This document shows positions 7,045 to 33,746 of a DNA stretch of 64,000 bases, piece after piece (within the stretch, counting starts at the first letter, position 1; each line of letters starts with the position of its first letter). Source of the stretch: Blasia pusilla (Eukaryota); the NCBI GenBank assembly GCA_050084515.1, contig CM114271.1, forward strand, positions 8,680,001 through 8,744,000, written 5' to 3'. The notes beneath the pieces are model-generated. The model saw only the letters and a list, made by a program, of their open reading frames with translations, had not been told where the DNA came from and searched no databases. Position numbers and translations under genes: made by a program.

Positions 7045-7309
7045 TCCAAGAAGATTCCAACGAGAGGAGACTGAGAATGAGAATGAGAATATTTAATTTA
7101 TAGTGAATAGGAAACAGATACTCCTGACAGATTTTTACTGACAAGATGAATTCGGTGGGTGACATTGTGTGACACAATGGATCCAATTCTGTAACACATT
7201 CTATTCTGTTGCAATATGTTACTGGATTTGGGAAGCAGAGGGTTGCGCATCACACTTGGAACGCGTCGGAGTCCTGGTAACTCAAAAATACCCGAAGCTA
7301 ACCGAAGCC

Positions 7310-7910: not shown

Positions 7911-7966
7911 TTTCACGTCCGGACTTCCGTAACATCCGGCACGTCGCCGTTGAAAGGACGACGGGA

Positions 7967-8003
7967 CCCAACGGTGAGCCTAACGGCTAGAAAAGTATAA
8001 ATA
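7967..8003 (+). promoter_or_regulatory. Two MSA-like (AACGG) elements plus TATA box upstream of the ParB-MTase gene, copy 1
   Basis: CCCAACGGTGA, CCTAACGGCTA, then TATAAATA at 7996-8003. Confidence 0.55.
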
Positions 8004-8294
8004 GGGCAGAAATCGCTCATTTCCGGTTTCTCATTTCGCGATCTTCATTCCTCACTCTCTCGCGGAGCAACTGATCAGATACAAAGGGGCATTTCACACG
8101 GCGACACATCGCGAGTCGATAGGAGGGATTGAGAGCGAGACTGTTCGACGCAGCGACAGCGAGACGGTTCAACCAAGCGATCGCGGGATCATTTGAGCTA
8201 CCCATCAAGGCAATTCGAGCTCCCATCTCGACATCAGCAAGGCGACTGATCAAGGGATTCATCGTGGACATAGGTGCAGGCATTTCCGAAAAAA

Positions 8295-10603
8295 ATGACG
8301 AGGAAAAAATCACAAGCCAACAAGTCTGGGAGCTTCACTCCGAAGTCCATTAGGACTCCTACGTTAGCTTCTCCTAGGCCTCGTTCGGCGAATGAAATTA
8401 GGCAGCAGGAAATCGAGGAGCGGGAAAGGGAAGCGGAGATGCACAACCAAGTGCTTCTTGCAAGACGTGTTCAAGAGGCGCTAGATAAACAGAACGCAGA
8501 GGCTGAGACGTCGCAGGCCTTGAAGAAAAGGATCGCGGCGACTTAAAAGAGAGAAAAGAAGCGTCTGGACGCGTCGGTGAGGAGGGCAGAATTGGCTAAA
8601 GCGAGGAGGGAAAAAGCGATAGCCATTGACGATAGCCCCGCCCGTCCAACTCCAAGTGTTGAGATGCGGGAAATGTCCCCCACAAAGTCCGGGGACACAA
8701 TCAACATTGTGGAAACACCAGAAGTTGAAATCGATGACGACGAGGTCATGAGGACCGCCAGCGTGGAGATGGTGGACATGGCCGAAGAAGCCGGAGGCCG
8801 GTCATTCTCGACTCCAAGCTCTGGTTACCGAGGAGGACTTGGAAAAGCTCGACACATTCTGGAGGATGCGAGACCAGGACTTCAGAAGGCAAGTTGAGGG
8901 CACGGAATTCAGCTGGATGAGGAATCTGCATTTCTTCATCTGGGATGGAAATCACAGTTTCATGGAGTGGACCAAGTTTGCGGAGGAGCGGACCAACTCA
9001 TTGGAGGCACATTTATGCGTGAAGGCAGTGGTCCTTCACCCATACCCTCATCACATGGCGACGGTGGAGATGGCAATGCATGCCATGAACACGTGAGTAT
9101 CTTTAACACTTTCGAAACTCGTCGGACTCCGATGAGTTGCTCGATTGATGAATGGGTTAGGTTTGTTTTTGCCAAAAGCAACTCGTCGGACTCCGACGGG
9201 TTGCTCGACTGCACGCTTTTTCGGATATTTTTTTAAGATTGCAACTCGTCGGACTCCGACGACTTGTTTGATTGACCATAGATTTAACTAGAGTTTGGCC
9301 CAAAGCAAATCGTCGGAGTCCGACGGGTTGATTTCGGCCAAAAACAGTTTCGAGGCAAGCAATCCGTCGGACTCCAACGGGTTGCTTTGGGGAAAAAACC
9401 TTCTAAACCTGCAGTGACTCGAACAACTCGTCGGAGTCCGACGAGTTGCATTCTTCAAAAAACATCCTCACAAGGCGGCCTATCGAGCAACCCGTCGGAC
9501 TCCGACGGTTTGCTTACCAAGCATTAGCAAATCTGAATGCAATCCGTCGGACTCCGACGGGTTGCATCATTTAGCTCGTTGCTAGAATCCAACCTTGAGC
9601 TGTGACGACCCGTCAGACTCCGACGGGTTGCAGGAGCCCATGTAATTTCCTGACGGGTTGAGTTTGGATGTGCAGGATTGTATCGGAGGGGAATGTCACC
9701 CATCACTGGATCCAGGACTGCGATCGGGTGAGGAAGGTGCTTACGACGAACCCGGGAGAGTACAAGGGGTTCTTGGGCGATGCCTTCGTCAATCAGATGC
9801 TTGCAAAGGGTGCTCAGATTAAGAAGAAAACTTGGGCAAATAAGTTTATTTCTCAAGATGCACCAGAACCATCCTTTTGCAAAGTTGAAGATACAGCCGT
9901 GAAGAAAAGTCTGCGACCGAGCCGGAGCGGAGGGAGAAGGTATCGCGTCTGAGCGCGCCAAATTCATCAAGCCGCAGATCTGCCGCAACGAAATACACGG
10001 CGAGCAAGATGCAGCGATACATCAAGATTCTCAACCCCGAACTTGGTCCGAGTTCTACAAGGAGCCAAGGCAATTATCAACCGCTGCGGAAGAGGGATGA
10101 AGATCCGCATGGTCGGATTGGGAGAAAGTGTCATTTGGATCGCGTGCATCGGTTTGCGTTGTCGGGATAAGCGAAGTTTAGGAGGATACGATCGGATGAA
10201 AATCGTCTCGAGGGCTCAAAGGCCTAGAAGAGGGCGCACACCATCCTCGGGTGTGTCGATCCGATGATCTTGCATTGGCTCGCGAATGGTCGTTCGGGAT
10301 GCGCATGGTAATCGGAAGTCCGTCTTTGGGACGGATGCAAGCGGAGCTCAGAAGATTAGAGCCCATTTCTCCAAGAGCAAACCTTGAAAGTTCTGGAGAT
10401 TTCGAGGTTTGGCTCGATGACATCCGGGACAAGCCAACCAAGAACCCATGATTCAAGACCATGTTCAAGGTTTGCGTCCTCCCTCAGGCAGAGCCTGACG
10501 AAGAAGTAGAGGGGAACAAACGGGATCAAGCGAAGAAGAAGCGAGATCTATAGGAGCATACGGCTGATTCTGTTCGACTAAAAGCTACCCAACGGATGGT
10601 CTT
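8295..10603 (+). pseudogene. ParB-like/methyltransferase gene, copy 1 (N-terminal half only, internal deletion, frameshifts)
   Basis: MTRKKSQANKS.. coiled-coil N-terminus and FFIWDGNHS at ~8944. Homologous to 16077-18978. Confidence 0.75.
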
Positions 10604-11010
10604 CAGGGAGGTGCGGTAAGAGGAGAGGAAGAGAGGAAGAGAGGAGAGAGGAGAGAGGAAACTACCTTCAACCGAAATAGATACTTTTTTTTGAAGAGAG
10701 TTTCCGCTGGGTTGAAGAGAGGAAACTTTTTGTGTGAATATTTTTGCACTGTTTTGTTCATTTATTAAACAATCCCACCGTTTTTTTTTCCTCTTCCATA
10801 TTTTGGCAACCCCTCTGAGTCCGACGAGTTGCAAATTGCACAAAATTTAGAAAAGTGAAAAATCAGTGGAATCATAAGTGTGGAACCAATCACTTTTTCC
10901 ATCCAAGGTCTGGAAAAAATCTATCATTTTCCCCGGGCTGAATAGAGTTCAAGCTCAAAGTGAAGGTTGAGGAAAAATAAAAGTACAATCTAAAACCTCA
11001 TTTTGCATCC

Positions 11011-14000
11011 TCAAAGTGGTTTGTTTAAAATACTTCGCACTTCTTTGAGGGATGAATTGGTTGGTGGATTCCTACTCCTACCTCCGACTCTCTTAAAACT
11101 ACCAAAGAACACATAGTACATGTGCTTACAAGGGAAATACCTTTTGCCACTTGTCTCTCTTTGGACAAAGTCATCACATGAACATGTGGGAAAGCAACAA
11201 ATGTGCACCACATACACCCCTGTGACACTTGAATTTACAGTGTTGTTCCTGACCCAATACATCCTTCCTATTCCATTGCCATTCAAGACATCTTACGTGG
11301 CGATGATCTCCATTTTTGCCTCCCGAGCTAATGCAATTCGCTTTGCTCTCTCCACCGTTGGCCTGCACATTCTGTTTCTCTTCACCCCATTTCTAGACTC
11401 AAACAAAAATAATGGATTGAGATCATCCACCTTCTCCGGGTACATGTTGACATCAATATTGGGTTGAATACAAAATGCGAAGGTCTCTGTAATGCGAACA
11501 TGCTCTGAACTTCCCCCGTCTACGAGTCTAAAACCGTCACTTGTAAGATTGTCAACTTCGTCTTGAGTGCAGTTCGTGCCTGCGGCGATGGGCCAAATCG
11601 TGGGGGTATTCCCGGGAGCTCCAATGGCAGCCAGATAAGACTTCCGGAAAGCGCAAGATTCATTTGGGCAGAAGAAGTACTTCAATTGATCCCCGGTCCT
11701 CGTGAAACGATCAAAGGTTTTGAGTCCCCAAAACCCAGGCAGAGGTCGTCGATCCTTATGCAGATTCTTATTTAGGAAAGTGCCGCATGCTCTCCTAATG
11801 CCATCAGATCCTGCCCTGCAGGTGGGTCCACGTCCTGGGTTGCTCCGAGATATATGCCACCGTTTTAGGTTGCAATTCACCTCCATTATCGGAATCCCAT
11901 ATTGTTGAACCACCCCAGTGACAGGATGTTGCGAACTTCCAGCAACGGAGGGCTTTTAAAATAAAACATTCACTGATTTTGGAGAAGTAACTCCATCACG
12001 GATTTGGGACGGGTCCGGGGTCCCCGAATACCTGGGTGGTGTAATTTCCTCATCCAAATCAATCACCGGATTCGTTCCTCGATGCTGCCTCTTCACATGC
12101 CTGAAGTCAAGATACTTATCTGATCTCCACGAGTCTCGTTCGGACAGCTCTACCACCATCTGTATGGGACGTCATGAAACCCGCCCACGAATATCCCCAC
12201 CTATGTGTACGTCTTGCTCGAGTGGAGTTCCAGCTACGCACCGGTTGAAGGCTTCGACATACAATTTTTCATCACCAGATCTCACAGCCGCCCTAACATA
12301 GAGCTCGTAGATCGACGGCCTTTTCCTTTTGTTATGCCTTTTGTGAGAAAGATATGGGATGCTACAGACTGTAGCATTGCTCTTGCCTGGTCTTGTTGGC
12401 ATGCCTCCACAAGTGAAATTCGTTGGCATGCTTGTGACGACCTCCAAGAGGAATGAACACTTTGTGCTCCACTTGTGTTGGGGCAGAGGGCATTTTAATG
12501 AACGTTCAATCCCTGCAACGACGGAAATGTTAGAAGGGAACGAAAATAACCCAGGAGTCAAAGAAATAAGCGACTTGTCGGAACCAGACAGGTTGCAGGC
12601 CCGAGGCATCCCATGAACGACTCTGCGACCCGTCGGGTCGCGACGTGTTGTAACCTTAAACCCACCTACTGCAACCCGTCGGAACTTGACAGGTTCAAGG
12701 CCGAGGCATCCCATGAACGACTTTGTGACCCGTCGGGTCCCGAATGGTTGCACACCCGGGACGACACCAAACATGTGGATGCAACCTGTCGGTTTCTGTC
12801 GGGTTACACACTCGGGCAACCCGTCGGTTTCCGTCAAGTTGCACACTTGGGCAACCCGTCGGTTTCCGTCGGGTTGCACACTCGGGAAACCCGTCGCATC
12901 CGACAGCTTGCTTGGTCTCTTGGGTTTAAAATCCATATAATACCCACGCTTCTCACCCTGAGCTACAACTTTACAAACAATTTTCAGCGTGAGCTTGACA
13001 AGATAATAGTGAACTCACCTGCCGCATGAAGTTACCCCATTGTCACATACGTACACTCCACCAACTCAACCAAGAGCACAACTCTTTGTACTTCCCCTCA
13101 ATCGCATGCTTCCTCCACCATCCATGAAGTTCTTCGTGGCATTCCATGGCCTGCTTCAAGGTTTTGCTGTCCTTGCAGCGTTGGAGTAGAGTGACATGCT
13201 CCGTCCTCTTATTCTCCTTGATGCAAGATTTGGTGTACGGGTCACTGATTATTGTTGCCAATGGAAAGCATCCGACCTTTCCCTCTCAGGTTGAACCTCT
13301 CCACCCCAGAACACTTCCCGGATAGCAATCCACCCAGGTTGTGCATTGTCCGCCATGAACCCATAAATTTCCGGAGGTGGCCTTTTGTTTTCCTTCACCA
13401 CTTCCAATAAGAGTAACAAACACATCTTCAAACTGCCAACATCTTCTGCCTTTACTTCACACACAAATATAGTTTTGAGTCCCTTCTCCACATGGTCAAA
13501 AACGTGAGCACCCATCGTCAACCATCCGTTCAGCACTCTGTAGCAAATATCAAAGCTTACCCAGCTCCCGTAAAGATCTTCCCCTTCCCTCATTCGATCT
13601 AAGATCGAGGCCACTCGAGGGACCTGTGGTTGACATTTTGAAGACATAGGCCCTGGATCCTTTGCCTCCTTGGCCCATGAATTGCCATCTCTCAATGAAT
13701 GGAAACCTGGAGTTGGCCTTGATTCTGGCGATGGCATCCATTTCGGCCGTCTTTCCATCCAGAACTCGTATGTGACGCAGCAAATTCCTGAAGCATTCAG
13801 GATCATCGAGAAATGCGAGATTTACCCAGAGTTGTTTCTCCTCAACCGCCGTGATCTCGCCCTGTCCAGCGATTCCAAGCAATTGTTCACAAATTTGTGA
13901 TGCCGTTGTGAGCTTGATCACCCCGGGCTTTGAACCCGGAGAGTTTCTGTAGACCTCGGCTACTTTCTTCGCCACATCCTCCTTGATGTGTCTTTGAATT

Positions 14001-14929
14001 GCATCGGTCACAGGATGAGTGTGGGAGCCAACATGAACTGCCACCCTTGTATTCTCTGAAGTGGAGCCCAAGTCGTGGACAATGAAAAATATGTATGCTA
14101 GACACCCTCCAACGCAGAAGGGCGATCCCTCACAATGAGGACATCGATGGCCTCCCGGAGGTATGGTGGCACCGACCTCGTATGGAGTTTCTGCATTCTT
14201 GGGAGGGAATTGCGACATATTGACTCGCCAGTTGCGCTCTAGATACGGTCATGCTGGACTTCTACACTCCAAGGCTCCCACGCATTGGCGGCGAGAGACA
14301 ATCCAAGGACCATCTGGAATTGAAGCACTGGTCTGTTGAAGCATGCACCATCGATGACAATCAGACTTTCTGTCCATACCCTTCAGGCGTCCTCCATCCT
14401 TCTTTTGAGCAGGAGCAGCAAGTGGAGGCAACTCGCAAGAGGAACGAGTAGGCGGACAGAGGGCCCGATTGGTGCCCGACAGATCCACTGAGGTTGATAA
14501 CATCCGGAATCTCTTGTGGAAAAACAACATTGTTACGAGCGTGCGAAGTTGGAGTCGAAGCCGGATCTGCAGAGCTTGGAGTTGCAAACGTAGAGCTCGG
14601 AGCACTAGGAAATTCTAGACCGTCTACTTGGGAAACAGACGAATTCAGGGGCACGCCGTAAACTCTGTATTGACCATTTGCTAGAGGTAGGAGATTCCAT
14701 ACTTTACGGTCTGAGGTCACTGGCTGGACCGTCTCACCTATTTTGTCTTTCGTACCGTCCACCCTAACATCTTTGGATACAAAGATGGTTCCAATTTGAA
14801 GAAAAATCGAACAGACAGAAAATTTTCATCCACTGCTATGAAAGACTCACGAGCTTGGGGTCGAATGATTTCCGATTGAGGAAGGGCCTCCAAATGACTG
14901 CCATAAGTGAGCTTAACATAATTATCCAT
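11011..14929 (-). pseudogene. MULE-type transposase with GCM-like domain, DDE core and SWIM finger (copy 2, frameshifted)
   Basis: ORFs 14738-14929, 14249-14605, 13550-14218, 13249-13806 (SFDICYR, FMADNAQ, DAFHW), 13043-13261, 11293-11913 and 11011-11286 (CSC..CKH). Confidence 0.8.
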
Positions 14930-15787
14930 TCCAAGAAGATTCCAACGAGAGGAGATTGAGAATGAGAATGAGAATATTTAATTTATAGTGAATAGGAAAC
15001 AGATACTCCTGACAGATTTTTACTGACAAGATGAATTCGGTGGGTGACATTGTGTGACACAATGGATCCAATTCTGTAACACATTCAATTCTGTTGCAAT
15101 ATGTTACCGGATTTGGGAAGCAGAGGGTTGCGCATCACACTTGGAACGCGTCGGAGTCCTGGTAACTCATAAATTACCCGAAGCTAGCAGAAGCCTGCAA
15201 CCCGTCGGCATCGGACGGGTTGCACGCTTCTGCTAAACATTGTCGAAGCGAGCAACCCGTCGCTCTCCGACGAGTTGCTCGGATACCGATCCTTCTTGCC
15301 CGAAGATGCCGGAGGCGTGCAAACCGTCTGTTCCTGACGAGTTCCGCGGGTGCCTCGCCTTTTAGCCCAAAGACGGCAAGGCGTGCAACCCGTCGCCCTC
15401 CAACGGGTTGCGCAAGGGCCTCGCCTTGTGGTGCAGCCAGCCAGACTCCGACGACTTGCACGGGAAGCCCTCATTCCTAACCCTTGATGAGGGAAGCGTG
15501 CAACCCAACGGTCTCCGACGGATTGCCCAAGATACGTCCCGTTCCCGTCCCAAACACGGCGGAGGCGCGCAACATGTCGGGCTCCGACGGGTTGCGCGGG
15601 AACCTCGCGTTCTTTTCCGAAGACGACGGAGGCGCTCAACCCGTCGGTCTCCGACGGGTTGCTTGCGCACGTGGCAACGGACATAGGAAGGCAGAGCCGC
15701 GCAACCTGTCGGACTCCGACGGGTTGCCATTTTTCACGTCCGGACTTCCGCAACATCCGGCACGTCGCCGTCGAAAGGACGACGGGA

Positions 15788-15824
15788 CCCAACGGTCAGC
15801 CCAACGGCTAGAAAAGTATAAATA
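15788..15824 (+). promoter_or_regulatory. Tandem MSA elements plus TATA box, copy 2
   Basis: CCCAACGGTCA (15788-15798) and CCCAACGGCTA (15800-15810) match YCYAACGGYYA. TATAAATA at 15817-15824, ~250 bp before the ATG at 16077. Confidence 0.6.
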
Positions 15825-17419
15825 GGGCAAAAATCGCTCATTTCCGGTTTGTCATTTTGCGATCATTATTCCTCACCCCTCACTCTCCCGCGCATCAGCT
15901 GATCAGATACGAAGGGGCATTTCACAGGGCGACACATCGCGAGTCGATAGGAGGGAACGAGAGCGAGACGGTTTGACCGAGCGATAGCGGGACGATTCGA
16001 GCTCCCATCTCGACATCAGCAAGGCGACTGATCAAGGAATTTGTCGTGGACATAGGTGGAGGCATTTCCGGCAAAAATGACGAGGAAAAAAACACAAGCC
16101 AACAAGTCAAGGAGCTTTACTCCCAAGTCCATTAGGACTCCTACGTCCGCTTCTCCTGGGCCTCGTTCGGCGAATGAAATTAGGCAACAAGAAATGGAGG
16201 AGCGGGAAAGGGAAGCGGAGATGCACAACCAAGTGCTTCTTGCGAGATGTGTTCAAGAGGCGCTAGATAAACAGAACGCAGAGGCCGAGACGTCGCAGGC
16301 CTTGAAGAAAAGGATCGCCGACGAAAAGAGAGAAAAGAAGCGCCAGGAAGTGTCGGTGAGGAGGGCAGAATTGGCTAAAGCGAGGAGGGAAAAAGCGATA
16401 GCCATTGACGATAGCCCAGCCCGTCCAACCGCCAGTGTTGAGATGCAGGAAATGTCCCCCACGAAGTCCGGGGACACAATCAACATAGTGGAAACTACAG
16501 AAGTTGAAATCGATGACGACGAGGTCATGAGGACCGCCAGCGTGTAGATGGTGGACATGGCCGAAGAAGCCGGAGAGCGGTCATTCTCAACTCCAAGCCC
16601 GGCGGAGGACATCGACCTCTATCGGATCGACGAGTTCCCAGTCGATTTTCCAGCCTCTGTCTCAGACAAGTTAGCTAGTCAAGAAACCGACCCCATTTTC
16701 GAATGCCCATTTCTTCCTTTTCTGGTCTTGTTGTGGCCTTCAGGTTTTGACTCTTTGAGTCCCCCTCTTTTGTACTTCCGATGGGTTTTCCATCACTCGT
16801 TTTTATCGAAGTGCATCTTTCTTCTTTTCGAGCGGGTAAGAGAGGTTCTGGGTTTTTTTAATTATGTGAATCGCAATTCATTGGGAGTTCATGTGTAGCT
16901 TATTCCTCTTGTCCCGGTTCTAATAGGTGGTGAAGCAGATGGCACTCATGGAGGGCCACAACGCCCCGAGGATTCCACTCTACCGATTGCGGACAATGGA
17001 ATACGTCCGCGAAATTCAGTCCGACGAGGACATTGCGAAGCTAAAACAATCGGCGGCGACAGCATCCTACGTCGACAACTTTCCTCCCTTCTATATTCAG
17101 CCTTACGACGAGCATGGAACCCAAGCTCTGGTTACCGATGAGGACTTGGAAAAGCTCGACACATTCTGGAGGATGCGAGACCAGGACTTCAGAAGGCAAG
17201 TTGAGGACACAAAATTCTGCTGGATGAGGAATCTGCATTTCTTCATTTGGGATGGGAATCACAGGTTCATGGCGTGGACCAAGTTTGCGGAGGAGCGGCC
17301 CAACTCATTGGAGGCACATTTCTACATGAAGGCAGTGGTCCTTCACCCATACCCTCATCACATGGCGACGGTGGAGATGGCAATGCACGCCATGAACACG
17401 TGAGTATCTTTAACACTTT

Positions 17420-18030
17420 CGCAACTCGTCGGACTCCGATGAGTTGCTCGATTGATGAATGGGTTAGGTTTGTTTTTGCCGAAAGAAACTCGTTGGACTC
17501 CGACGGGTTGCTCGACTGCACGCTTTTTCGGATCTTTTTTTAAGATTGCAACTCGTCGGACTCCGACGACTTGTTTGATTGAACATAGATTTAACTAGTT
17601 TTTGGCCCAAAGCAAACCGTTGGAGTCCGACGGGTTTCTCGACAGGCCGCCTTGTGAGGATGTTTTTTGAAGAATGCAACTCGTCGGACTCCGACGGGTT
17701 GATATGGGGAAAAATAGCTTCGAGGCAAGCAACCCGTCGGACTCCGACGGGTTGCTTTGGGGAAAAAACCTTCTAAACCTGCAGTCACTCGAGCAAATCG
17801 TCGGAGTCCGACGGGTTGCATTCTTAAAAGAACACCCTCACAAGGCGGCCTATCGAGCAACCCGTCGGACTCCGACGGTTTGCTTACCAGGCATTAGCAA
17901 ATCTGAATGCAATCCGTCTGACTCCGACGGGTTGCATCATTAAGCTCGTTGCTAGAATCCGACCTTGAGTGCGGACGACCGTCGAGTCCGACGGGTTGCG
18001 AAAACCCATGTAATTTCTCGACGGGTTCAG
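17420..18030. repeat. Palindrome array with a nested ~200-bp inverted repeat in a ParB-MTase intron (copy 1 equivalent 9115-9660)
   Basis: Perfect GCAACCCGTCGGACTCCGACGGGTTGC at 17729-17755. aggccgccttgtgagg.. (17644) is inverted at ..cctcacaaggcggcct (17851). Confidence 0.85.
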
Positions 18031-19916
18031 TTTGGATGTGGAGGATTGTATCGGAGGGGAATGTCACCCACCATCGATCCAAGATCTGCGATCGGGTGAG
18101 GAAGGTGCTTACAACGCACCCGGGGAGAGTACTGAGGGGTTCTTGGCGATGCCTCGTCAATCGATGCTTGCAAAGGGTGCTCGGATCAAGAAGAAAACTT
18201 GGGCAAACAAGTTTATTTCTCAAGATGCAACCGTAGCCATCCTTTGCTGGTCGAAGATTCAGGCCGCGAAGAAAAGCGCTGCACTGGAGCTGGAGCGGAG
18301 GGAGAAGGTAACTGCGTCTGAGTGCGCCAAATTCATCCAAGTTGCAGTATCTGCTGCAACGAAATACACGGCGAGCAAGATGCAGCGATACATCAGCATT
18401 CTCAACCCCGAACTTGGTTCCCAGTTCTACAAGGAGCTGAAGGCGATTATCAAGCGCCAGCGGAAGAGGGATGAAGATCCGCATGGTCGGATTGGGGAGA
18501 AAGTGTCGCAGGATCACGTGCATCGGTTTGCGTTGTCCGGGATAAGCGAGTTTAGAAGGATATGACTGATGAAAATCAGTCTTGAGGGCTCAGAGGCCCA
18601 GAAGAGGGCGGCACACCATCCTCCCGGTGTGTATGATCCAGTGATCTCGCATTGGCTACGCGAATGGTCCTTCTGGGACGCGTTGCGGGTAATCGGAAAG
18701 TCCGTCTTTGGACGATGCAAGCGAGCTCGAAGATTGGAGCCCATTCCGCCGGAAGCAAACCTTGAAAGTTCTGGAGATTACGAGGTTTGGCTCAACGACA
18801 TCCGGGACAAGCCAGCAAAAAACCCAGGATTCAAGACCATGTTCAAGGTTTGCGTCCTCCCTCAGGCAGAGCTTGACGAAGAAGTAGAGGGGAACAAACG
18901 GGATCAAGCGAAGAAGAAGCGAGATCTACAGAGCAGACGGCCGATTCGTTTCGATTTAAAGTCGCCCAACGGATGGTCTTGTGTACCTCGCCCGTGTAAG
19001 AACGCAGGTACGTGGGGAAAATTACCGGTAGCCTTGAAGTTGTGGGCTTTGCTGCCGGATGCAGAGACATTCTCCATGTACGACGTGGAGATGGGGCAGC
19101 ACATGTTCGATTGGGAGGTGGAGAATTGCCCCATTTGGCTCGACTTCAACGACCCTGAAGACATCACGGATAAGGACTTACGAGTGCTTCATGATGCAGT
19201 GACCTCAGGACAAGACGACATCCCCAATTTTGTCCAGCCTGAAGACTTCTTCAAGGAGATGCAGAAGAGCAGGCCCACGAGACAGCTGAGTTCGCTTCCA
19301 AGGTCCGGACAACCAAAGACAAATCCACAATGGTCTCAAAGGCAAGGCGAGGGGAGGGAAAATTCAGAGGCCGAGTCTTCCCAAAGAGAGGTCAAGATTC
19401 AAGGCCAGAGGCGGAATCGTCGGACGAAAGCGGGGAGAGAGGGTCGGACGGATCCTCGGCGAAAAAAAACGCCACGAATCCGAGGTCATAGAAACCTGAC
19501 AAGCCATCCCAGGCTAGGAGAAGCGGAGCGAGAGGTGCCTGGGTTGTCCCAAGGAGAATACTGACCCCATCGCCTTGGGAAGACACAGACAAACAACGAC
19601 CGAACAAGCGTCCTCCTTGATTCCTCCTTTATTGGATGAGTGAAGCCTTGATTCTCAAGTGTCGACACCGACCATCAAAATCGACAACGTTGGGACGGAA
19701 GCTCCAACGAAACGGGCACGCTGCCTGGACGGTGAATGGAGTGGTCGAAGAGGTTGCGGTGGATCTCTTGATCGCCGATCTGCCCTCGGGGTTGCGACTT
19801 TGGGGCGAGAATCCGTTGGACGAGGTACCTGAGTGGAATGTGCCACTCACTTATGACCAGATTGCACTTTTGTTCTCCTTTGCATACGCCTATCTGAGTG
19901 ACAGGGGCTGCTTTCT

Positions 19917-20709
19917 CCCTCGATCGCCATTTCCAAGCCAACTCATTCAGATCTCCTCCTCATTTCTTGCGTCCCTCCTTGAGCGTCTGAGTCTAGCCGC
20001 TACCTTTGAGTTTCCCTAAGCAACCGGTTGATCCCACGACCCCAAGTTCTCGCTCACCAAGGATTTGCTCTGATACCACTTGTCGCGCCCCTACTCTCCT
20101 TGAACGTCAATCTTTAGTATTGCGGAAGCGTACGTTCAGTAGGTCACGAACTCATCGCCGATCTAACACCCAAACACGCACTCGTTAGTCGGGTCCGGGC
20201 CAACCGGCGTCCAACCCACCGAGTCCTCAACTCGGCGTCTCATCAAGCTCAACCTTCCTTAGTTCCTAGTTTCCAAAACATGGCAAGTCCTTCAAGACTT
20301 GGAACAGACTTCCTGGTTAGTCCAGGGATCTGAAGCGGCACTTGCGCGCCTAGCGATCCCAACTGTTCAACGGTCCTCGGGGGAGTTCCGAACCGAGACC
20401 CAAGTAATTGAGTCGCGGGGTGGAATCCAAGAGGGATGTCTAAAATCGCCTCAATGGACTTGGTGCAGGTTTTCCAACCCAACCCCCAAACTCGCGTTCC
20501 GTTCCATGCCCTTGAGCCGCCCCGCGGCGCCCAAAGTGGGGTTTGGGTTCCAAGCACTCTCAGAGACCTTCCCCCTTTTTAGTACTTCTGAGGTTCTCTA
20601 ATAACCCCTCCCCTTAGGGAAAAGAGGGTCGGGCCCTTCATTGTGGCCCTCAACCCGACTCCACTTACAGTCGTTTTCGGGTTGTATCTCGGCCGCTGCT
20701 TATGCGTTT
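19917..20709 (-). mobile_element. Chromovirus fragment: partial 5' LTR (20081-20709), tRNA-iMet PBS (20067-20078) and a short internal piece
   Basis: GCTCTGATACCA is the reverse complement of TGGTATCAGAGC. The adjacent LTR matches 42750-43751 and 46832-47835. Confidence 0.85.
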
Positions 20710-23700
20710 TGGATCTGAGGACTCACCATCCAACCTCCCTCTTGGAGTGGATGCCTCCTATTGACCAGACATAGCCAACAGACACTAATCGGCAGATGCG
20801 TGCCAACTCGGCACCATCTCCTCAACACTCTCATCATGCCACCTAGCTCCACTCGCATCGCTCTGGCTCGTGCATGGATTATAGCTCAACCCGTCTGCAT
20901 CCTGGTTTAGATGTCATGGGCGATGGACAACCTGAAAATCATACTCATGCAATAGGAGTGACCATCTGGCAAGCTTCCCTGTAAGCTTGTCAAACTCCAT
21001 CAACCATCTCAGTGGCTGATGATAAATGATGAGCGAGAAAGGATTCCCGAACAAATAACATCTAAAATGGGCCACTGCCCATACTGCAGCTAAGCACTCC
21101 CCCTCATAGGAACTCTACTTTGCCTCCGCAGCGTTGTTTGAGCAGCTCGAATATGCCACAACAAACTCCTTCCTCTCATCATCTCTCTGAGTGAGCACCG
21201 CTCTTAATCCCAACACACTTCGGTCTGTATGTAACTGGAACGGACAACCACGCATAGGTCTCCTCAAAATGGGCAAGGACATCAACCTGTCCTTGAGCTC
21301 CTGAAATGCTCGCTCTTGATCATCTCCCCAAAACCACTCCTTGTCCAACCTAGTCAACAAAGTTAGTGCCTTCGCAATCGCACTAAAGCCCTTCACGTAC
21401 CATCGGTAGTAGTTTGTCAATCCCATAAAACCTTGAACTCGACTCACATCTATAGGGCCGGCAATGCGTGTTGTGGCCTCCACCTTTGTGTGTTGAACTC
21501 CAATACCCCTTGATAAATGATGGCATCCAAGGTGCTCAATCTGGTCATGGAAGAACCTGCACTTGCCTAGAAGTAACTTCAGCCCATGTAATTACAATCG
21601 TCAAAACACCTCCTCCAGATGTCTCTCATGCTCCTCAACAGTAGCACTGAAGACAATAATGTCATCGATGTAACATCTCGCATAATCCGAACTAGCCAAA
21701 ATCTTATCCATAACTCGCTGAAAACCCGTAGGGGCGTTCTTCAACCTAAATAGTAAGAACCGCCACTAGTACAAACAATCCATCCCGAAAGGGTGTATCC
21801 CCCAAAATGTTGTCTTCTCCCTATCTTCCACTCGGATGGGCAACTAATGATAGCCACACGCACATCCAAACAACTAAAGATTCTTGCATGTCCCACCGCA
21901 TCAAAGATCTCCTCACGAGTAGGCATAGCATAGCAATCGACCTTCGTATGCCGATTGATAGGACGATAATCTCCACACATCCGCCTATCCGTCCATTGGC
22001 CATGCATGTCCTTCTTTGCCGGCATAACTGTGGTAGATGCATACTCTCCAAGCGATCTCTCCACCAATCTAGTCTCAGCCAAGTATCGACTCCTACTCTG
22101 AATCAAGGCTCGCTCCATGTCGGAATACTTGTAGGGTCGTCGAAAGATAGGAGTATCACTATCCAACTTGATCCGAATACATGGACCCTTCAGTGTGCCT
22201 AAGTCATGCATACTATATGCAAAATGGTCCCTAAATCTCCACAATAATTTCAATATTCATCTCCTCTCCGCTCTTGTCAACCTAGGAGCAATCATCGGCT
22301 CCCAAGTCTCTCTCATGACCTTTAGAGAAGAGGAGGGTGGTGGTTGCTAACTAGCAACCTCTAGAGTAGCAACATGCGCTCCCAAATCGAACACCAACTC
22401 TCTAGGCACTCCACGATGTCCTGCATCGGCAAAATGAACTGCCATCTCTCTATAATCTTGTGACATGTCCCATGAAGTTCATGGATGCCTCTCCATCACC
22501 ATCGCGTCCCCTGGCATTGTCTTACCCATCCCGGTAGACGTTGCGATGCAAAGTGGATGTAATGTCACACACGCCTCTTGCATCCATCTTTGCTCAGCCA
22601 AACCAAGACTGAACACCCAAGTAAGATAGTTCAGGTCCATAGCCTGACCCAATACATGTTTGTGGGATGCCTGTGCTATCACAGGCACCGTCACCGTACC
22701 TGTAGAGAACCCCATAGCTTGCTCTTGCTCGTCAACATTGAGCTCCACCAGTGTACCTGCCTGCTCATCCCATATCATTTCTGGTCCTCCCTAACAAAAA
22801 GCATGAGATGCCGGAAAACTCACCAACACAGGAAATCAGGCCCACCCGATTGGCCACTGCCAACGGTGGTACATCATCACGAGTAACAACCTGAGATCGC
22901 TACCCTGGATCAAAGATCGCATCCACCGTAAGTAGTGATAGTTTGTGGACTCCATCATGAGCCCGCCTTAGTAACTTGGATGGTAAAAGGTTCATCCATC
23001 ACAATCGTGGACGGTGTGCGCGCAATCCAACACTCGCCGCATCCAACATCACCGTAAGTCCTATCCACGACTGCACTTTATGTACACTCACCATCACTCG
23101 GGCTTGAGTGTTACCTAAAAATGGGATGTTCTCTAAAATGTAAGCTGGAGAACATCGTTGGGTAGTCTGCAAGTGTCGAAGAATGCGCAACAGCTCCCAA
23201 ACCATCGCCGACCTCGGGTCCTGCAAACCAAGTCCCCGACCTCCCAAAGAATGACCCTGACATGGCCACCCTGCCACCACCAAGTGTATCGGACCAACCA
23301 TATTCATATGTGGCGCCCCCAACAACGAATATCGCCCATAAATACATGCTGATATCCCTTGACTGCAGACATTGGCAATAACTGAGGATATTGCAGGACT
23401 AGTCTCGACACGTGATGTAATGAGACTCTACATGCAATCTCATCTCTCTCAACATACAAGTACTATTGTACTCGTACTTTGACCTACAACACTGGAACCA
23501 ACGTTGTACTAATCCCTCCAAAGAGATCTAGTATACGTACACCCTCCTCAGGATACTGCCACACAATCGATGTGGTGTCCAAGGGTGTCACCGTCTCTAC
23601 TCTTAGAGCACGTGGTAACTCTATCCCATCTCGCTCTAGAGCATAGGCTTGGCTCCACGCCTACCTCGTGAGCTCATCTGCTCTCCTCTACAAATCGATG

Positions 23701-25980
23701 CTCGTCCCCCATAAAGCTGAAGAAGTGTGGCCATCAGATGTAGCCATGCTCGTCATTGCATGCCACTCCTCAAGACTATTCTCTGCATCGGCGTTCCCCT
23801 CCAATAAATCTCCAGGCCAACATAATGTGCCATAATAAGAAGCAACTATTGTGGTCGACCCTTGGAGTGAACCATCAAGTCTCCCTGCATACTACACGGG
23901 TAGCTGAGTAGCTCATCCCTCGCCTGACTGCTAACCTGATTGAAAGGAGGCTATCTCCTCCCAAAAGTCAAGTGTGAACCCTAGAGGATACAATACCGTA
24001 GCCCCTACCAAAACATCATAAGACTTGGCCGGTGTCACAACCGCTTGTGTCGGCACCATCGCACTATCCATAGGATGATCGGGCCGAATCCTCTCTGCAA
24101 TCTCATCGCGAGTCATGAACTATGTCGGGGATGTGCCTCCCTGTGAAGTCTGAATCTGGAATGGACATGGAGTGATCTCACACTTCCGCAATCCCATCGT
24201 TACACATGCCGCCTTCCCCAACATAAGGAGTTGTGCTCCTGAATCAAGTAGCACTCTCCGCGGTCGATACATGATTTCGGATGGACCAACCAACTAGAAA
24301 ACTCCATGTCGGTTGTCTAAGACAACAATTCTTGGTGAGACGGCTGCACGCTCTATCGCTGGTCTAGTTGGAAACTCCACCACTCTAGCCATTGCTGCAT
24401 GCCAACTCTCTGTGGCTCTCGTCTCGAGCACTTGCTCTAAGGGTACCTCTAGAACATCTCCTTTGCGAGTCTCAACACTAGAAGAACCAAACTCATTGCT
24501 CTCACAAAGCGTCGCCGCCAACCGGAAAACCTCAGTTGGTCGACCTCCACAAGTCAACAAATCTCTAGCCGTAAATAGTGGGATGCTACACAAAGCCATT
24601 TCCATCTAGATCCGGAAGTCGACGTTGTCCCCTACATCTCATGTAGATGTCTATTGGGCCATCATAGTCTCAAGGCGTTGCTCCAACTGAGCTATCCCCG
24701 CCAAAGCTGCCTCTGATGCAAATGTTGCACTCGCTTTGGCAGGTGGTGGGGTCCTGCCTCCACCACATCCTCGTCCTCCTACACCTCGTCTTCTGCCACC
24801 TCCACGTCCTTGACCTCCCTCTAGGCGCAACTCAGGTGGAGCTCAAAACATCTCTCACGTGTGTGCCCATATCTCTGGAAATGATCACACTAAGGTAAGG
24901 GTGGCCTCCCCTGGGCCGCCTCATATACAACTGATGGTGATGCCTGTAGTCCACTCTAATGTCTTCAATCTTGCTGACAATGTGATCCTCCACACGTCCA
25001 ACAAGAAATCCCTAAGCCCTGCTACCCAACGTATGACAGAATTGGTCGTGGTCGTTGCTCCTGGGAAGCTCCCGTAGCCCTCGGTCCCATGACTCTATCT
25101 CGAGTTGTGCGCTGCAACACTCATGGAGACACCATCACTCGTGTCATCTCCCTCGAAGATGATCTGCATGTCGTCAAAACTCTCTCCTCAAGTATTTTGA
25201 GCTGAATCCGCTTCGCCAACAAAAATACAGACTTGAGAGTAGGCAAACCAATATGTAAGAGAGTTGCATCTTGCACTCTCTTCTGCAACTCGCAGTCTAG
25301 CATCGCATACCAAAATTGAATTTCTTGTTCCTCCGTCACACCCTGAGTCGCTATGATCAACCGTTGGAGCCGTGCATAGGCCTCTAGAAGACTCTCTCCG
25401 CTCTCCGTTGAAACTCATGAATCGACTTTAGCACGGGTCCTCACCCCTTGATAGTTCCTCCCCAACTCTCGGAAGAACTCAACCAATGGGTTGAACATGG
25501 GTGATACTCGACTGGTCACAGTTGTAAGACTCGGGTCGACAACTCCTCCAAGTGTCTCCTCTTCGCGGTTAGTGGGTGCTTCTGCAGGCGCCACATCATA
25601 CATCGCGCGCCCTATGAGGAACATATATCCTGCAGACCAAAATAGTCCCCACGCCTCGATCTCCGTCTCATGGAGAATCCAAAACTTGTGGTAATCATCC
25701 ATGGGAGGGCCCTCCAGATGTTGAAAAAGTCCCTTCCACGCCATAAAGGGGTTGAATCTCTCCTGGTTCCGCATCCTTTGTGCATCGCACCAACTATCAA
25801 ACTCCTCCATAAAATCATCCAACTCAATGGTTTCCACGAGGCTTGAGAACCGTCCGAGTCCCTTCATGGACCCATACGTATTGCGATCATCCATGTCCCA
25901 CAACAAAAGTGTGGCAACAATCGCGACACTCCATGGCCTCTTGGATAACTCAGAATCCGCTAATGTCACCTTTAGAGTAA
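20710..25980 (-). mobile_element. Gypsy-DNMT retrotransposon, copy B (gag-protease-DNMT-RT-RNaseH; both ends truncated)
   Basis: gag-like 25415-25969. Protease VLLDSGAQ ~24235-24255. DNMT 22600-23545. RT 21500-22250 (CYIDDII). RNaseH CPFQLHTD..EFVVAY. Confidence 0.9.
22600..23545 (-). pseudogene. C5-DNA methyltransferase domain (copy B)
   Basis: LDLFGGIS, GWPCQG, YILENI, AHRPRL and VLGQAMDL motifs. Confidence 0.9.
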
Positions 25981-26199
25981 CTAGTGTTGACTGGAGGGAG
26001 CGAGGATGAGCTCTTCAACCTCCAGTGCGTCAAGAGGTCGCTAAAGTGGAGGACGGCACAATCGTGGATCATAAAAAATGAGTACCCACTCCGATCCGCG
26101 ACAAATCAGATTCGGGTAAGGCTCAATTCCTGTACAATAATTTCAATTATCTTATAATGATGTGTAGAATGAGAGTCAATCTGGTTTTTTTGTCCGTGA

Positions 26200-26600
26200 G
26201 CAACCCGTCGGAAGGCGACGGGTTGTCGGGTTTAGAGCGTGTTCTTCGGGCTTAGAGCGGCCAGGCTCGGCTGAGAGCAACCCGTCGGTTTCCGACGGGT
26301 TGCATCTTTCCCACATAGACAGGGAAAACGGCGGTGTACCTACAACCCGTCGGAACCCGACGGGTTGCAATTGCTTTTGTGTTTTCCCAGTTGATTTTGG
26401 TTTTTGGATGCAACCCGTCTGATAGCGACGGGTTGCTCTCAGGCGAGCATGGGCTGCTCTAGGCCAGCAACCCGTCGCCTTCCGACGGGTTGCATCCAAA
26501 AACCAAAATCAACTGGGAAAACCCAAAAGCAACTGCAACCCGTCGGGTTCCGACGGGTTGGTCCGGGACAAAACAACCCGTCGGACTCCGACAGGTTGAT
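26200..26600. repeat. Palindrome array and ~220-bp hairpin in the last intron of the MTase gene
   Basis: 26342-26437 is inverted at 26466-26560 (ttcccagttgattttggtttttggatgc / gcatccaaaaaccaaaatcaactgggaa). Confidence 0.85.
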
Positions 26601-29295
26601 CCAAAGTCAGTTATTGAAAATGTTCTCAAGGCGACTTCTTTAGTTTCTGACATTGTTTCCAACGTGCTGATTTACAGATGGACCACTCCTACGTCTACTG
26701 CTTCGTTCGGCCCGAGCACAATTTCCAGGTGTTCAAGATCCAGGATCCTGTGGATCCATGCTCAGATGGGTACAGCTTAGATAGTTTGTACAATTCCCCC
26801 CCGGGAATTTACATGCAAGACAGTACCCCACTTCTGGGAGGAAGGGAAAAGTCGCCAGCCCTGATGCAAACGCTCATCGAGCTCTGCTCAAGGCCGGGTG
26901 ACTTGGTGTTCGACTTAGTGGGACTTTCAGGGGCAAGTATCAAAGGCGCCTGGCAGAGTGGCAGGAACATTCTCTGCCTCGAGGGAAGGCAGGAACTGTT
27001 TGACCTTTGCAAGGAGGCAAAGGCAGAATACGAAAGGCTCGTTGGGGCGTACAACTCTCCACCAAAGCCGAGAGCTCCGGTTCCAGAGCCACCCTTGGTA
27101 GTGACTCCATCGTCACTTCCAACGATTCCCAAAATCAGGAGGGCAAGGCCGAAAGTGATTTTGCAAGAGCTCCCAGACGATGACGAGTGAGTTCAAAGAA
27201 CTCAGCGACTTGACGGCTTATTGCGGCGTTTGGAGTAGGGAGTTTTTGATAATGAGGCAAAAGATTTCATATAATAGATCAAATGTACAGATTCGAGCTT
27301 TTTTCGGATGATATAAAGCAGAAGATTTTTTCGATCGATGGTGCTTGTAAATGTTTGCTGATCATTTTTCTTTTCGAATGTGATCGTCTATGTACTCCAC
27401 GGACTTCTACTTTGCAACCCGTCGGATTTCTCCTGCTTGCAACTTTCACTTTATGACCACTGTAACCCGTCGGATTTCTCCTCCTTGCAACTTTTCGCTT
27501 TTTGACCACTGCACCCTTTTTACCACCTCCAGGCAACCTCTCTGATTCCGACAAGTTGCCTAATCGGACCCTTTCCCTGTTGGTCCAACTTAAGAGGCAG
27601 TCTGGCGGGCTTCTTCCCTTGGCACCTTCCCCTCAACTCGTAAAGGCAGGCGTAGGCTTCTTTTCTTCTCTCAGACGTGTTGGATTCCTTCTACCTGTGC
27701 GATTGCCATAATGGTATTACCGGGGACGGAGCAGATATTGATTCTGGATGTGTTGTATAGCGATGTGTATGCGCATAACAAGCCTCATGGGCCTGGTATC
27801 GGCACTTACACTAGAAGACGTTGTTCGCGCTGTATCTGATCAGGGGCCAGGGGCAGAATGCCCCAACATATATAGATTGTTCTTGAGCACACACATTGCA
27901 AGTATGTCACCTTGCTTATGTCTGATGATGCATGCACCGTCTTGAAGTGCCAGACTGCCTCCAAACAGGTCGTGTCTTAACATAGAGAAAAGGTTCTTTA
28001 TCAGACCTAGTACGTGTAGAACATCTTCGATCATGATGTCACATTGCAGAGCGTACAAGGTATACTGCCGAGGAAGGCGGTGGGACTCGAGACAGGTTAC
28101 ATAGGACCGTTATGGTGTACCTAGGGGGGGGCCAAGGCTCTCGAATTCGCCAACATTTTTTATCCGCGTCTACAATCGGCCAGAGGAGCCACTTGAATCC
28201 CAAGACATTCCTTTGGTGCTGTCACCGAGGAGAGTTAGGAGTAAATTTTTAGATGACGAGGTTGAAGAAATCATAGACTAGGTGAAATGTAAATTTCCGA
28301 GGTTCCTTCGGAGGTAATAAAGGACAAGATTTTTTCAACCCATAATGGTGTTTGTAAAAGTTTGCTGGAATATGTTTTTGGACTTGTGGATTGTGTTCTT
28401 TTAGCTACTGAGAATTACAATTCTGCAACCCGTATGATTCCGACTTTTTGCTTTTTGCCCAGTGCAATTTTTTAACCATTTCCAGGCAACTTGTCAGATT
28501 CCGACAGGTTGAGTGCTTGAGTGATCCGACTCTATCCCGGTGAGACCAACTTCTGGCGCATTGTGGCGGGCTTCTTGACTTTTGGCTCGTTCCCCTTCAT
28601 TCGTCCAACCAGTTGTAGGCTTCTTTTCTTATCTAAGATGTGCAGGATTGCTACTACCTGTCGGATTGCCATTTCGGATTCCCAACCTGTTAGATTGTCG
28701 TGGGTGCAGGGTGGAAGAAAATCACTTCTAAAAATCTTTCCTTTCTTATGGTGAGCTTTCTTACGGGTTGGGAGGGGTGCAGCTTCTTGGTTTCTCAGCT
28801 TTAGGATCTGAATGAAGGGACATCAGTTCCTCTTTACTCCAGACAGCTAACAATATTTTGGTTCAATTATCCTCTCATGTGTTCATATTTCACAAAGTTG
28901 GTCTTGAGTAGACACCATTCATAACCAACAGAAAGTTCGTTATGGGGCAATTCAGGGGAGGCCATGATGCAGGCAACAATCCCTGCAAAAAGAGAGGTTG
29001 GCATCCGGGTGGTCCTCCAACAAAAATACCCATGGGCACTGCTTTTTGTAGACCGAGACAGGTAATGTTAAGAAACTTAGGCTCACATGGAGAGTGATGG
29101 AAAAATGTTTGTAGTGATCTTATGATGTCTACTTTTTTTTTGCCCCCAGGAAAAAGGAGGTTTTTTTAGGGCCAAATGTGGACCACTACCTACTCTCTTC
29201 TAAAGATTTCCTGAATTTGAAAGCAAACAAAATTTTCAAATGTCATAAAGTTTTGAAGAGAGGAGGCGGATTTGGCCCTTTTTTTTTAAGAGAGA

Positions 29296-29339
29296 CTCTC
29301 CTCTCTTCCTCTCTTCCTCTCCTCTCTTACTCTCTCCTG
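29296..29339 (-). repeat. Right terminal inverted repeat of the MULE
   Basis: Reverse complement CAGGAGAGAGTAAGAGAGGAGAGGAAGAGAGGAAGAGAGGAGAG resembles the left ends at 2784 and 10604. Confidence 0.65.
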
Positions 29340-29376
29340 CCAGAATACCAGCCCCCCCTAAAAAATCGTGACAATT

Positions 29377-32796: not shown

Positions 32797-32799
<3 letters not shown>

Positions 32800-32860
<61 letters not shown>
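32800..32860. repeat. (GA)n microsatellite
   Basis: Direct observation; a second imperfect tract lies at 33708-33783. Confidence 0.95.

Positions 32861-32864
<4 letters not shown>

Positions 32865-33707: not shown

Positions 33708-33746
<39 letters not shown>

Follow-up and report, generated by a model that had tools for sequence, protein, structure and literature searches.

A decayed, probably Mutator-like transposon of Blasia pusilla with a methyltransferase-fold accessory gene and arrays of palindromes

Does a DNA transposon in the genome of Blasia pusilla encode its own DNA-methylating enzyme? The question is raised by a 64,000-nucleotide (nt) stretch of contig CM114271.1 (GenBank assembly GCA_050084515.1, positions 8,680,001 to 8,744,000 of the forward strand; the whole of this stretch is hereafter called the window), in which an initial annotation had read positions 10604–29339 as a Mutator-like transposon that carries, opposite its transposase, a gene joining a ParB-like domain to a methyltransferase that writes N4-methylcytosine (4mC) or N6-methyladenine (6mA). 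Our analysis leads to a modified answer. The best overall explanation, to which we assign a probability of about 0.6 as a joint figure for all of its parts, is that positions 2784–29339 hold two decayed copies of one Mutator-like element (MULE) family, and that the accessory protein of this family combined a ParB/Srx-type motif with a methylase-like domain that would bind S-adenosylmethionine (SAM), with weak or altered catalysis, and may have recognized its own element. At this locus, where both copies are pseudogenes and nothing functional is encoded, the transposon cannot be the source of a 4mC/6mA writer of its own, as had been inferred.

The accessory gene and its methyltransferase fold

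The accessory gene is best followed in the more complete of the two copies (copy B, 10604–29339), where it is a multi-exon gene on the plus strand, head-to-head with the transposase gene on the opposite strand. Its putative first coding exon (16077–16547, Lys/Glu-rich, with a Met codon at 16077) is proposed from the open reading frame (ORF) and has no homologue match. The exon of the N-terminal domain (16954–17399) carries PRIPLYRL at 16966–16989 and FFIWDGNHR at 17239–17265, matches six proteins of the liverwort Riccia sorocarpa in tblastn (E 5e-23 to 7.5e-11), and ends at a GTGAGT donor near 17400; we refer to it as the DGNHR exon. A middle exon (about 18030–19564) comprises a helical region and a low-complexity linker, with WEVENCPIW at 19112–19138 and a tblastn match over 18179–19240, and leads to an exon part that holds methylase motif IV (19650–19917; DLPSG at 19777–19791, DRGCF at 19900–19914) and is interrupted after 19917 by a retroelement. 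The interrupted exon continues at 25981–26113 (LVLTGGSEDELF..., with LVLTGG at 25981–25998 and a GTAAGG donor near 26114), and the last exon (26678–27190; tblastn E 5.7e-14 to Riccia) contains GGREKSP at 26837–26857, motif I as DLVGLSGAS at 26912–26938, motif II as ILCLEG at 26969–26986, and the stop codon at 27188–27190. At the expected exon ends there are candidate splice sites, GT donors as well as one AG acceptor, and the peptides quoted in the initial annotation (FFIWDGNHR, DLPSG, DRGCF, LVLTGG, and DLVGLSGAS) are all present where it had placed them.

We assign the DGNHR exon to the same protein as the methylase part because full-length Riccia proteins of 1089–1244 aa are collinear with the window exons and the family consensus crosses the insertion point. 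Residues 153–300 of Riccia P0026 (1244 amino acids, aa) align to 16966–17397 (E 1e-21), residues 354–536 to 18200–18736, residues 877–937 to 19732–19917, and residues 981–1143 to 26669–27181; P0043 and P0030 of Riccia are collinear as well. The in-frame continuation that had been proposed once the insert is removed is borne out by the consensus DDRGC[LI]IILH, which spans the 19917/25981 join, and by the Riccia proteins themselves, eight of eight of which cease aligning at 19917 in tblastn. The objection raised in advance, that the 25983–27190 part might not be linked to the DGNHR exon, is answered by the full-length Riccia proteins, in which the two form a single polypeptide. Among 52 proteins collected, five carry W[DE]GN[HY][RQ]; all five also carry motif IV, and P0026 and P0030 carry motif I too.

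The family is known to us from bryophytes and from sequence archives. When the last exon was searched against 1.84 billion representatives, nine proteins were returned at E ≤ 0.001, two of them repeat artefacts and seven true relatives, from Riccia sorocarpa, the moss Ceratodon purpureus (two proteins), and ENA/Logan records. A profile search found 41 Riccia sorocarpa proteins at E ≤ 1e-3, located on many large contigs, and several of the Riccia family proteins are 1048–1244 aa long. The DGNHR exon alone, searched against longer proteins, gave no match.

On a model of its homologue P0019 from Riccia, the C-terminal domain is established as a beta-class N6/N4 amino-methyltransferase in its fold and in the order of its motifs, with motif IV preceding motif I. 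The fold was modelled on P0019 with a 36-row family alignment, and the split window domain was aligned to P0019 exon by exon. The AlphaFold2 model has a predicted local distance difference test (pLDDT) score of 72.5 and a predicted template modelling score of 0.72, with the core mostly above 84 in pLDDT. Foldseek places 136 chains at E ≤ 1e-3, the best being CcrM (E 1e-11), and the top chains are CcrM, M1.HpyAVI, M.BceJIV, M.MboIIA, bdelloid N4CMT, M.RsrI, and M.PvuII (E 1e-11 to 1.5e-7). In VIA-align, the model superposes on CcrM with a Z score of 18.0 (root-mean-square deviation 3.0 Å, 209 residues aligned), on M.MboIIA with 17.8, on N4CMT with 17.2, and on M.PvuII with 16.2 (the beta-class range besides CcrM, including HpyAVI and RsrI, is 16.2–17.8), whereas MT-A70 enzymes score lower, at 11–12.6. 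At the level of profiles, hhalign aligns the family to four phage methylases (98.2%, E 3.8e-14, 194 columns), and a search of PDB sequences with the family profile finds M1.HpyAVI at E 1.9e-6 and CcrM at E 1.4e-3; tblastn of P0026 against phages gives only weak motif-I matches to stand-alone methylases (E 0.2–0.9). The last exon of the window itself matches DNA methyltransferase families of PHROGs (E 6e-6 to 1.5e-5) and, in Pfam, N6_N4_Mtase (PF01555; E 8.9e-5, 23.0 bits), the latter below the gathering cut-off of 26.7 bits, which the homologues (14.0–26.5 bits) do not reach either; 3 of the 41 Riccia proteins bear PF01555 as a precomputed label. The beta-class assignment made in the initial annotation, for which AlphaFold and Foldseek had been proposed as a check, is thus upheld by Foldseek, VIA-align, and hhalign alike, and of the two Pfam families it had looked to, N6_N4_Mtase is recovered, if below cut-off, whereas ParBc is not matched. 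We note that many Riccia members (P0007, P0012, P0020, P0021, and others) are named "Trimethylguanosine synthase" in UniRef; because fold and motif order are those of a beta-class DNA amino-methylase, our results suggest that this name is wrong.

On the evidence of its motifs, it is doubtful that this domain is a canonical 4mC/6mA writer. The fourth position of motif IV is Ser in 20, Thr in 7, Glu in 1, and Arg in 1 of the 29 aligned family sequences, and aromatic in 0 of 29, so that the DxPY form, whose presence the initial annotation had proposed to check, is absent from these sequences. Instead of the canonical (D/S/N)-P-P-(Y/F/W), the motif reads D-[L/M/I]-P-[S/T]-G, the exceptions including DAPEG in Ceratodon and DPPTD in one Riccia protein. 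Other key positions are retained: the motif IV Asp in 27/28 sequences and its Pro in 28/29, the motif II Glu in 25/29, and a glycine-rich motif I (G-x-x-G-A-S/T), which is GDIVIDFAGGWGA[ST] in the family and GDLVFDLVGLSGAS in the window. In the hhalign comparison, family motifs I and II align to GDVVxDxxxGSGST and GxE of the phage enzymes, D-L-P-S is placed on the D-I-P-Y of the phage methylases, and the HPTQKP of bacterial and phage enzymes becomes G-x-R-x-K. Because phage methylases carry D-I-P-Y, replacement of the first Pro is natural, whereas that of the aromatic residue is not. Degeneracy of these motifs had been noted at the outset, with activity regarded as unproven; motif IV is indeed noncanonical, but DLPSG is a conserved family trait shared with Riccia and not a product of decay. 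We infer for the C-terminal domain the role of a module that binds SAM and DNA, with weak or altered catalysis. Eight bacterial methylase loci from metagenomes were considered as family members and rejected, all of them having canonical DPPY or SPPY together with DPFxGSGTT. In the active eukaryotic relative MpDN4MT1 of Marchantia, motif IV is TSPPY (bioRxiv 2021.02.12.428880).

The N-terminal domain and the palindromes

Conserved stretches of the N-terminal domain, common to the window and to five proteins of Riccia, are PRIPLYRL, VTDED..K.D..WRM, F..W[DE]GNHR, VIL.P, and [IV]E[VM]AMH. Its DGxHR-type motif, read by eye and without statistics, is FFIWDGNHR in the window and STW[DE]GNHR in the five Riccia proteins. 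Further leads toward the "ParB-like" label of the initial annotation are a Pfam match of the DGNHR exon to DUF1015, which we take to belong to the ParB clan (E 0.0074, 15.7 bits against a cut-off of 25.8), and the neighbours of the exon (16927–17403) in a protein atlas built on language-model similarity, where clusters with DUF3723 (31% of members), ParB_N (11%), and DUF6551 (98%) appear at scores of 0.92–0.94. The order of predicted elements is, in our reading, compatible with ParB/Srx. However, no test by profile or fold confirmed the label. ParB_N of Pfam matches neither the exon nor seven Riccia proteins; PHROGs, NCBIfam, and PADLOC report no ParB family for the exon or for full-length relatives; a search of PDB sequences returns nothing for the exon and two low-complexity chance matches for the profile (E 8–9); tblastn against phages and plasmids finds no match for the N-terminal domain; an hhalign comparison with ParB_N domains from three plasmid proteins, on profiles of very little depth, reaches no more than 0.06%; ParB_N was sought in four phage records and found in none; and an AlphaFold2 model of the domain (nine sequences) has a mean pLDDT of only 43.7. 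These tests rest on nine sequences and so have low power. We regard the ParB label as plausible, with the odds leaning in its favor, and do not file the protein as a member of the ParB family.

A side observation concerns the best atlas neighbour of the DGNHR exon, which is the fungal cluster with DUF3723 in 31% of its members; Pfam itself gives no DUF3723 match. DUF3723 is a conserved cargo gene of the giant Starship transposons of fungi (bioRxiv 2021.12.13.472469), and the neighbourhood hints, as a thin lead, that one and the same accessory domain may recur among the giant transposons of eukaryotes.

Our analysis adds a feature that is absent from the initial annotation, namely arrays of a palindrome of 10+3+10 architecture, AACCCGTCGG-NNN-CCGACGGGTT (intronic form AACyCGTCGG-NNN-CCGACGGGTT). 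With three mismatches allowed and the 3-nt center ignored, the window holds 50 such palindromes against 0.00 expected, all of them inside the element and none in the retroelements or the rest of the window: 20 in the truncated copy A described below, 23 in 10808–17933, and 7 in 26202–26597. They are arrayed in the non-coding parts of the element at a spacing of about 52–67 nt, and the arrays form tandem repeats with periods of 64 and 127–132 nt. One array lies in a transposase intron (12627–12875) and another between the two head-to-head genes (15199–15725, seven palindromes, within the intergenic region 14826–16076); a third occupies the intron after the DGNHR exon (17421–17933, nine palindromes 52–64 nt apart, with its copy A equivalent at 9116–9629), and a fourth the last intron (26202–26597, seven palindromes). 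The core of 23–27 nt is conserved at 1.5–1.7 bits per position, compared with 0.17–0.5 in flanks and spacers. A single palindrome lies at 10808, about 200 nt inside the left end, and there is none within 2.7 kb of the right end. A CcrM-type GANTC at the palindrome center, seen at 22 of 36 sites, was discarded as a general feature: the search pattern itself contained GANTC, and in the center-blind count the center varies between arrays. By analogy with transposon systems compared below, we hypothesize that the palindromes are cis binding sites of the accessory protein.

The transposon copies and their surroundings

Self-BLAST of the window aligns 2784–10603 with 10608–18980 in collinear blocks of 88.6–95.3% identity, about 8 kb of shared sequence. 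Copy A (2784–10603), whose truncation point is 10603, retains the left end, the gene for the transposase, and, of the accessory gene, the 5′ part; copy B is full length except for the nested retroelement. The reading of 10604–29339 as one element is supported by the inverted match of its ends, in which the left terminal inverted repeat (TIR; 10604–10660, plus strand, GA-rich, starting with CAGGGAGGTGCGGTAAGAGG at 10604) is mirrored by the right one (29290–29339, minus strand). The TIR core is a perfect 30-nt inverted match to 29296–29325 (blastn-short E 2.8e-11) within about 45–50 nt, which is short for a MULE, and positions 2784–2836 of copy A have the same sequence as the left TIR of copy B. 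No target-site duplication, expected at 9–10 bp for a MULE, flanks either pairing of ends. Because the locus is rearranged, the two ends of the composite probably stem from different insertion events, and the layout resembles a nested or tandem insertion that was rearranged afterwards. The idea of a simple insertion of the composite into the left-hand retroelement gains no support from the right flank, which does not resemble the copy of this retroelement nested in copy B.

Both copies are broken. In copy B, the middle exon has a frameshift near 18110–18130, where copy A has one open frame, and an in-frame stop at 18563–18565, opposite the conserved E of Riccia "KIELL"; the methylase domain is split by the 6,063-nt retroelement. 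Copy A has no equivalent of 16598–17121 (about 520 nt in the region of the DGNHR exon), contains several frame breaks, and reads DGNHS, not DGNHR, at 8932–8958. Substitutions between the copies show no preference for any codon position (counts of 15/12/16 for the DGNHR exon and 9/10/12 in another case), and therefore point to neutral decay since the copies split. The truncated copy A, the coding breaks in copy B, and the retroelement nature of the insert had all gone unnoted in the initial annotation.

The transposase is likely, though not proven, to be Mutator-like. Its gene in copy B (11011–14825, minus strand, in several frames or exons) includes a DDE-type core at 13249–13563 with the strings WVSFD, GFMAD, and SDAFHW, the stretch IMEVNCNLKRW at 11857–11889, and a SWIM-like CxC...CxH finger at 11113–11184 (CSCDDF...PCKHMYY), all on the minus strand. 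We take the strings WVSFD, GFMAD, SDAFHW, and IMEVNCNLKRW to represent the Mutator D-D-D(2)H-E pattern; a C-terminal SWIM zinc finger is frequent in the MULE family without being universal. The transposase ORFs of copy A (3210–6761, minus strand) include an open 350-aa ORF at 5709–6761 where the copy B ORF is split, and in the protein atlas the core ORF at 5142–5609 (minus strand) has 23 of 30 matches to PF10551 (MULE) and three more to PF10551 with PF21056 (MULE and ZSWIM), at scores up to 0.94. The SWIM family PF04434 is matched at E 0.0046 and 16.9 bits (cut-off 19.6) on copy A and at E 0.032 on copy B. Of the earlier label "GCM/DDE/SWIM transposase", the DDE and SWIM parts gain from the mostly MULE atlas neighbours and from a SWIM score just below cut-off, but the GCM zinc finger is named by no library scanned, a CxxC...HxH string being present, and a Pfam scan of ten transposase ORF pieces yields no MULE domain. 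A homologue search with the transposase core against longer proteins gave no match.

The retroelement nested in copy B (19918–25980, minus strand; 6,063 nt, boundaries within about 3 nt) carries gag-like, C5 DNA methylase, reverse transcriptase, and RT_RNaseH_2 ORFs. Its C5 methylase ORF (22999–23427, minus strand; PF00145, E 7.3e-8; AGWPCQGHS at 23248–23274) lies upstream of the reverse transcriptase and RNase H, the latter recognized as RT_RNaseH_2 at 21115–21591 (minus strand; Pfam E 1.7e-15). A second copy, at 121–2783 on the plus strand, is about 85% identical in self-BLAST, and self-BLAST finds no long terminal direct repeats of the retroelement. The retroelement is similar to the KnitGypsy-Dnmt3 elements known from Klebsormidium (PMC5890265), and a methylase-bearing retroelement is here nested in the methylase-like gene of another element. 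Adjoining the right end of the MULE is an integrase core (rve, 29362–29802, plus strand; E 3.6e-11) with no similarity to the nested retroelement copy. Repeats of 79–84% identity at 20080–20709 (the 3′ part of the nested retroelement), 37872–38983, and 45723–47461 probably represent repeats, either terminal or internal, that belong to related retroelements. The window also contains a satellite-like, AT-rich tandem array at 34500–37270 (period about 280–350 nt, 7–8 units, 60–87% identity) and long GA/CT microsatellites at 32793–32896 and 33703–33778; the MULE termini are GA-rich as well.

Competing explanations, related systems, and meaning

In the explanation that we favor, the accessory protein would have about 1,100–1,250 aa, with an N-terminal DGNHR domain of putative fold, a long helical and low-complexity middle, and a C-terminal domain of amino-methyltransferase fold that would act as a SAM/DNA-binding module and not as a standard 6mA/4mC writer. 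It would recognize its own element through the 10+3+10 palindromes that stand in introns and in the promoter region, much as VANC recognizes VANDAL elements and as has been suggested for accessory proteins with a ParB domain in algal transposons, and this recognition may modulate silencing or expression of the element. Several of the results given above weigh against this explanation: the Pfam scores of the methylase domain below the gathering cut-off, the silence of the ParB searches and the poor model of the N-terminal domain, the missing Pfam call for a MULE transposase, and the lack of a target-site duplication. To these we add that no linkage of the accessory gene to a MULE transposase is seen beyond the window's two copies, which are themselves related, that the transposase is an equally possible binder of the palindromes, and that the loss of the aromatic residue, itself an indirect argument, is the only one against catalytic activity, in a fold for which phage enzymes make do with D-I-P-Y.

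One alternative, in line with the initial annotation, takes the accessory protein for an active DNA methyltransferase of the N6-adenine or N4-cytosine type, directed by a ParB domain, and holds that the transposon uses it to mark its own DNA. In its favor are the fold, which is that of the active enzymes CcrM, M.MboIIA, N4CMT, and M.PvuII (Z 16–18), and the conservation of motif I, of the Glu in motif II, and of the two catalytic residues Asp and Pro; the phage D-I-P-Y shows that the first Pro is dispensable. What makes this alternative unlikely in our judgement is the uniform absence of an aromatic residue from motif IV (0/29), where MpDN4MT1 has TSPPY and bacterial methylases DPPY or SPPY; METTL14, which is non-catalytic, likewise has no aromatic residue at this position. 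The window copies, moreover, are unable to make the protein at all. The same role has been proposed for the Sola1 protein of Ectocarpus (PMC12477816), to which we return below.

Two further alternatives concern the origin of the gene and the role of the palindromes. MULEs are known to take up host sequence (cited in PMC12477816), and the N-terminal and middle regions are named by no library scanned, as might be expected if the second gene were a captured host gene or fragment, in the style of a Pack-MULE, with no role for the element. We consider this very improbable, given a full-length gene of about 1,100–1,250 codons with an exon–intron structure of its own, its multi-copy state in Riccia (41 proteins on many large contigs), the conservation of key motifs among window, liverwort, and moss, the recurrence of the same palindromes in the accessory introns, the transposase intron, and the common promoter region, and the same opposite-to-transposase architecture in another superfamily (PMC12477816). 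A less remote alternative, which we still hold to be the weaker account of the palindromes, detaches them from the accessory protein and sees them either as sites of a transposase N-terminal zinc finger or as selfish, hairpin-forming tandem repeats. The site about 200 nt inside the left end recalls subterminal transposase sites, and tandem periods of 64 and 127–132 nt can expand by slippage; yet the right end has no palindrome within 2.7 kb, and a core conserved so far above its spacers fits a binding site, for either protein, better than plain slippage.

The locus represents a class of transposon accessory genes that is known though uncharacterized, in a variant carried by a MULE of a land plant, and the idea put forward in the initial annotation is not new in kind: ParB-plus-methylase genes borne by transposons are already in print for algal DNA transposons (2011, 2025; PMC12477816). 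The closest description is that of Sola1-1_Ec32 of Ectocarpus, a 21.5-kb element with a 1104-aa ParB-like and N4/N6-methylase protein opposite its transposase, which is proposed to bind and modify its own element (Dinatale et al. 2025, PMC12477816). The accessory gene of Blasia shares with it the strand opposite the transposase, a large DNA transposon as carrier, a length of about 1,100 aa, and a C-terminal amino-methyltransferase, the ParB-like N-terminus being only putative here; it differs, by published description, in belonging to a MULE-like rather than a Sola1 element and in having its relatives in bryophytes rather than in a brown alga. Accessory genes of this ParB-plus-methylase kind are cited by the same source from DNA transposons of green and red algae too (PMC12477816), and Iyer et al. 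describe adenine methylases fused to ParB and helix-turn-helix domains in chlorophytes and chytrids. In the Plavaka (EnSpm) elements of Bostrychia, PAG2 joins an N6-adenine methylase to SET and PAG3 joins ParB to a 2-oxoglutarate oxygenase, tandem arrays of inverted repeats that adjoin the ParB gene are proposed binding sites, and PAG genes also occur in Mutator elements of Chondrus (Petroll et al., bioRxiv 2025.02.11.637652). The likeness lies in a transposon-borne protein with a methylase domain, in the inverted-repeat arrays, and in the Mutator association in Chondrus; as far as the description goes, ParB and methylase there form two proteins with other partner domains, whereas here the putative ParB domain and the methylase domain are parts of one polypeptide.

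Other comparisons are with enzymes and with a functional analogue. The C-terminal domain has its fold, its motif order, and its motifs I and II in common with CcrM, M1.HpyAVI, M.MboIIA, M.RsrI, and M.PvuII, and in motif IV it retains their Asp and Pro, but unlike bacterial and phage beta-class enzymes it lacks the aromatic residue of motif IV and is embedded in an intron-containing eukaryotic gene of about 1,100–1,250 aa. Bdelloid N4CMT (PDB 8s9m) and MpDN4MT1a/b of Marchantia are host genes with a canonical (T)SPPY and demonstrated activity (bioRxiv 2021.02.12.428880; PMC8885841). They too place a beta-class fold in a eukaryote, MpDN4MT1 being a liverwort gene; the present gene, by contrast, is transposon-borne, has the D-L-P-S-G motif, and is of only putative activity. 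VANC of the Arabidopsis VANDAL elements, which are MULEs, targets short DNA motifs that stand in tandem in non-coding parts of its own element, with loss of 5-methylcytosine as the effect (Hosaka et al. 2017, PMC5735166). An accessory protein encoded by a MULE and tandem motifs in the element's own non-coding DNA are common to both; the analogy is functional only, as VANC has no methylase fold and no relation in sequence or fold is expected. In our literature searches on ParB in connection with transposons, methyltransferases, Mutator/MULE, and Marchantia, we found no description of such a land-plant gene or of the altered motif IV, though supplements may hold more.

What is new here is the occurrence of this type of gene in a MULE-like element with bryophyte relatives, the conserved alteration of the catalytic loop, and the dense palindrome arrays as a candidate target. 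The interest lies in the family and not in the window copies, which are dead and have no functional consequence. ParB-plus-methylase accessory genes have so far been mentioned only briefly, for algal transposons, and the proteins that transposons bring along to modify DNA or to act on chromatin have received little attention as part of the arms race with host silencing. The model is testable in Marchantia and Physcomitrium, which offer good genetics, with respect to the protein, the site, and the presence of 6mA or 4mC. At its most speculative, and with low odds in our estimate, the family might represent a land-plant MULE counterpart of ParB/parS, in which a ParB/Srx-like clamp joined to a SAM-binding pseudo-methylase loads onto dozens of 10+3+10 palindromes in the promoter and introns of its own element and shields or re-programs the chromatin there. 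If this were true, a self-recognition and anti-silencing device would have arisen independently of VANC, and D-[LMI]-P-[ST]-G would mark a new use of the amino-methylase fold.

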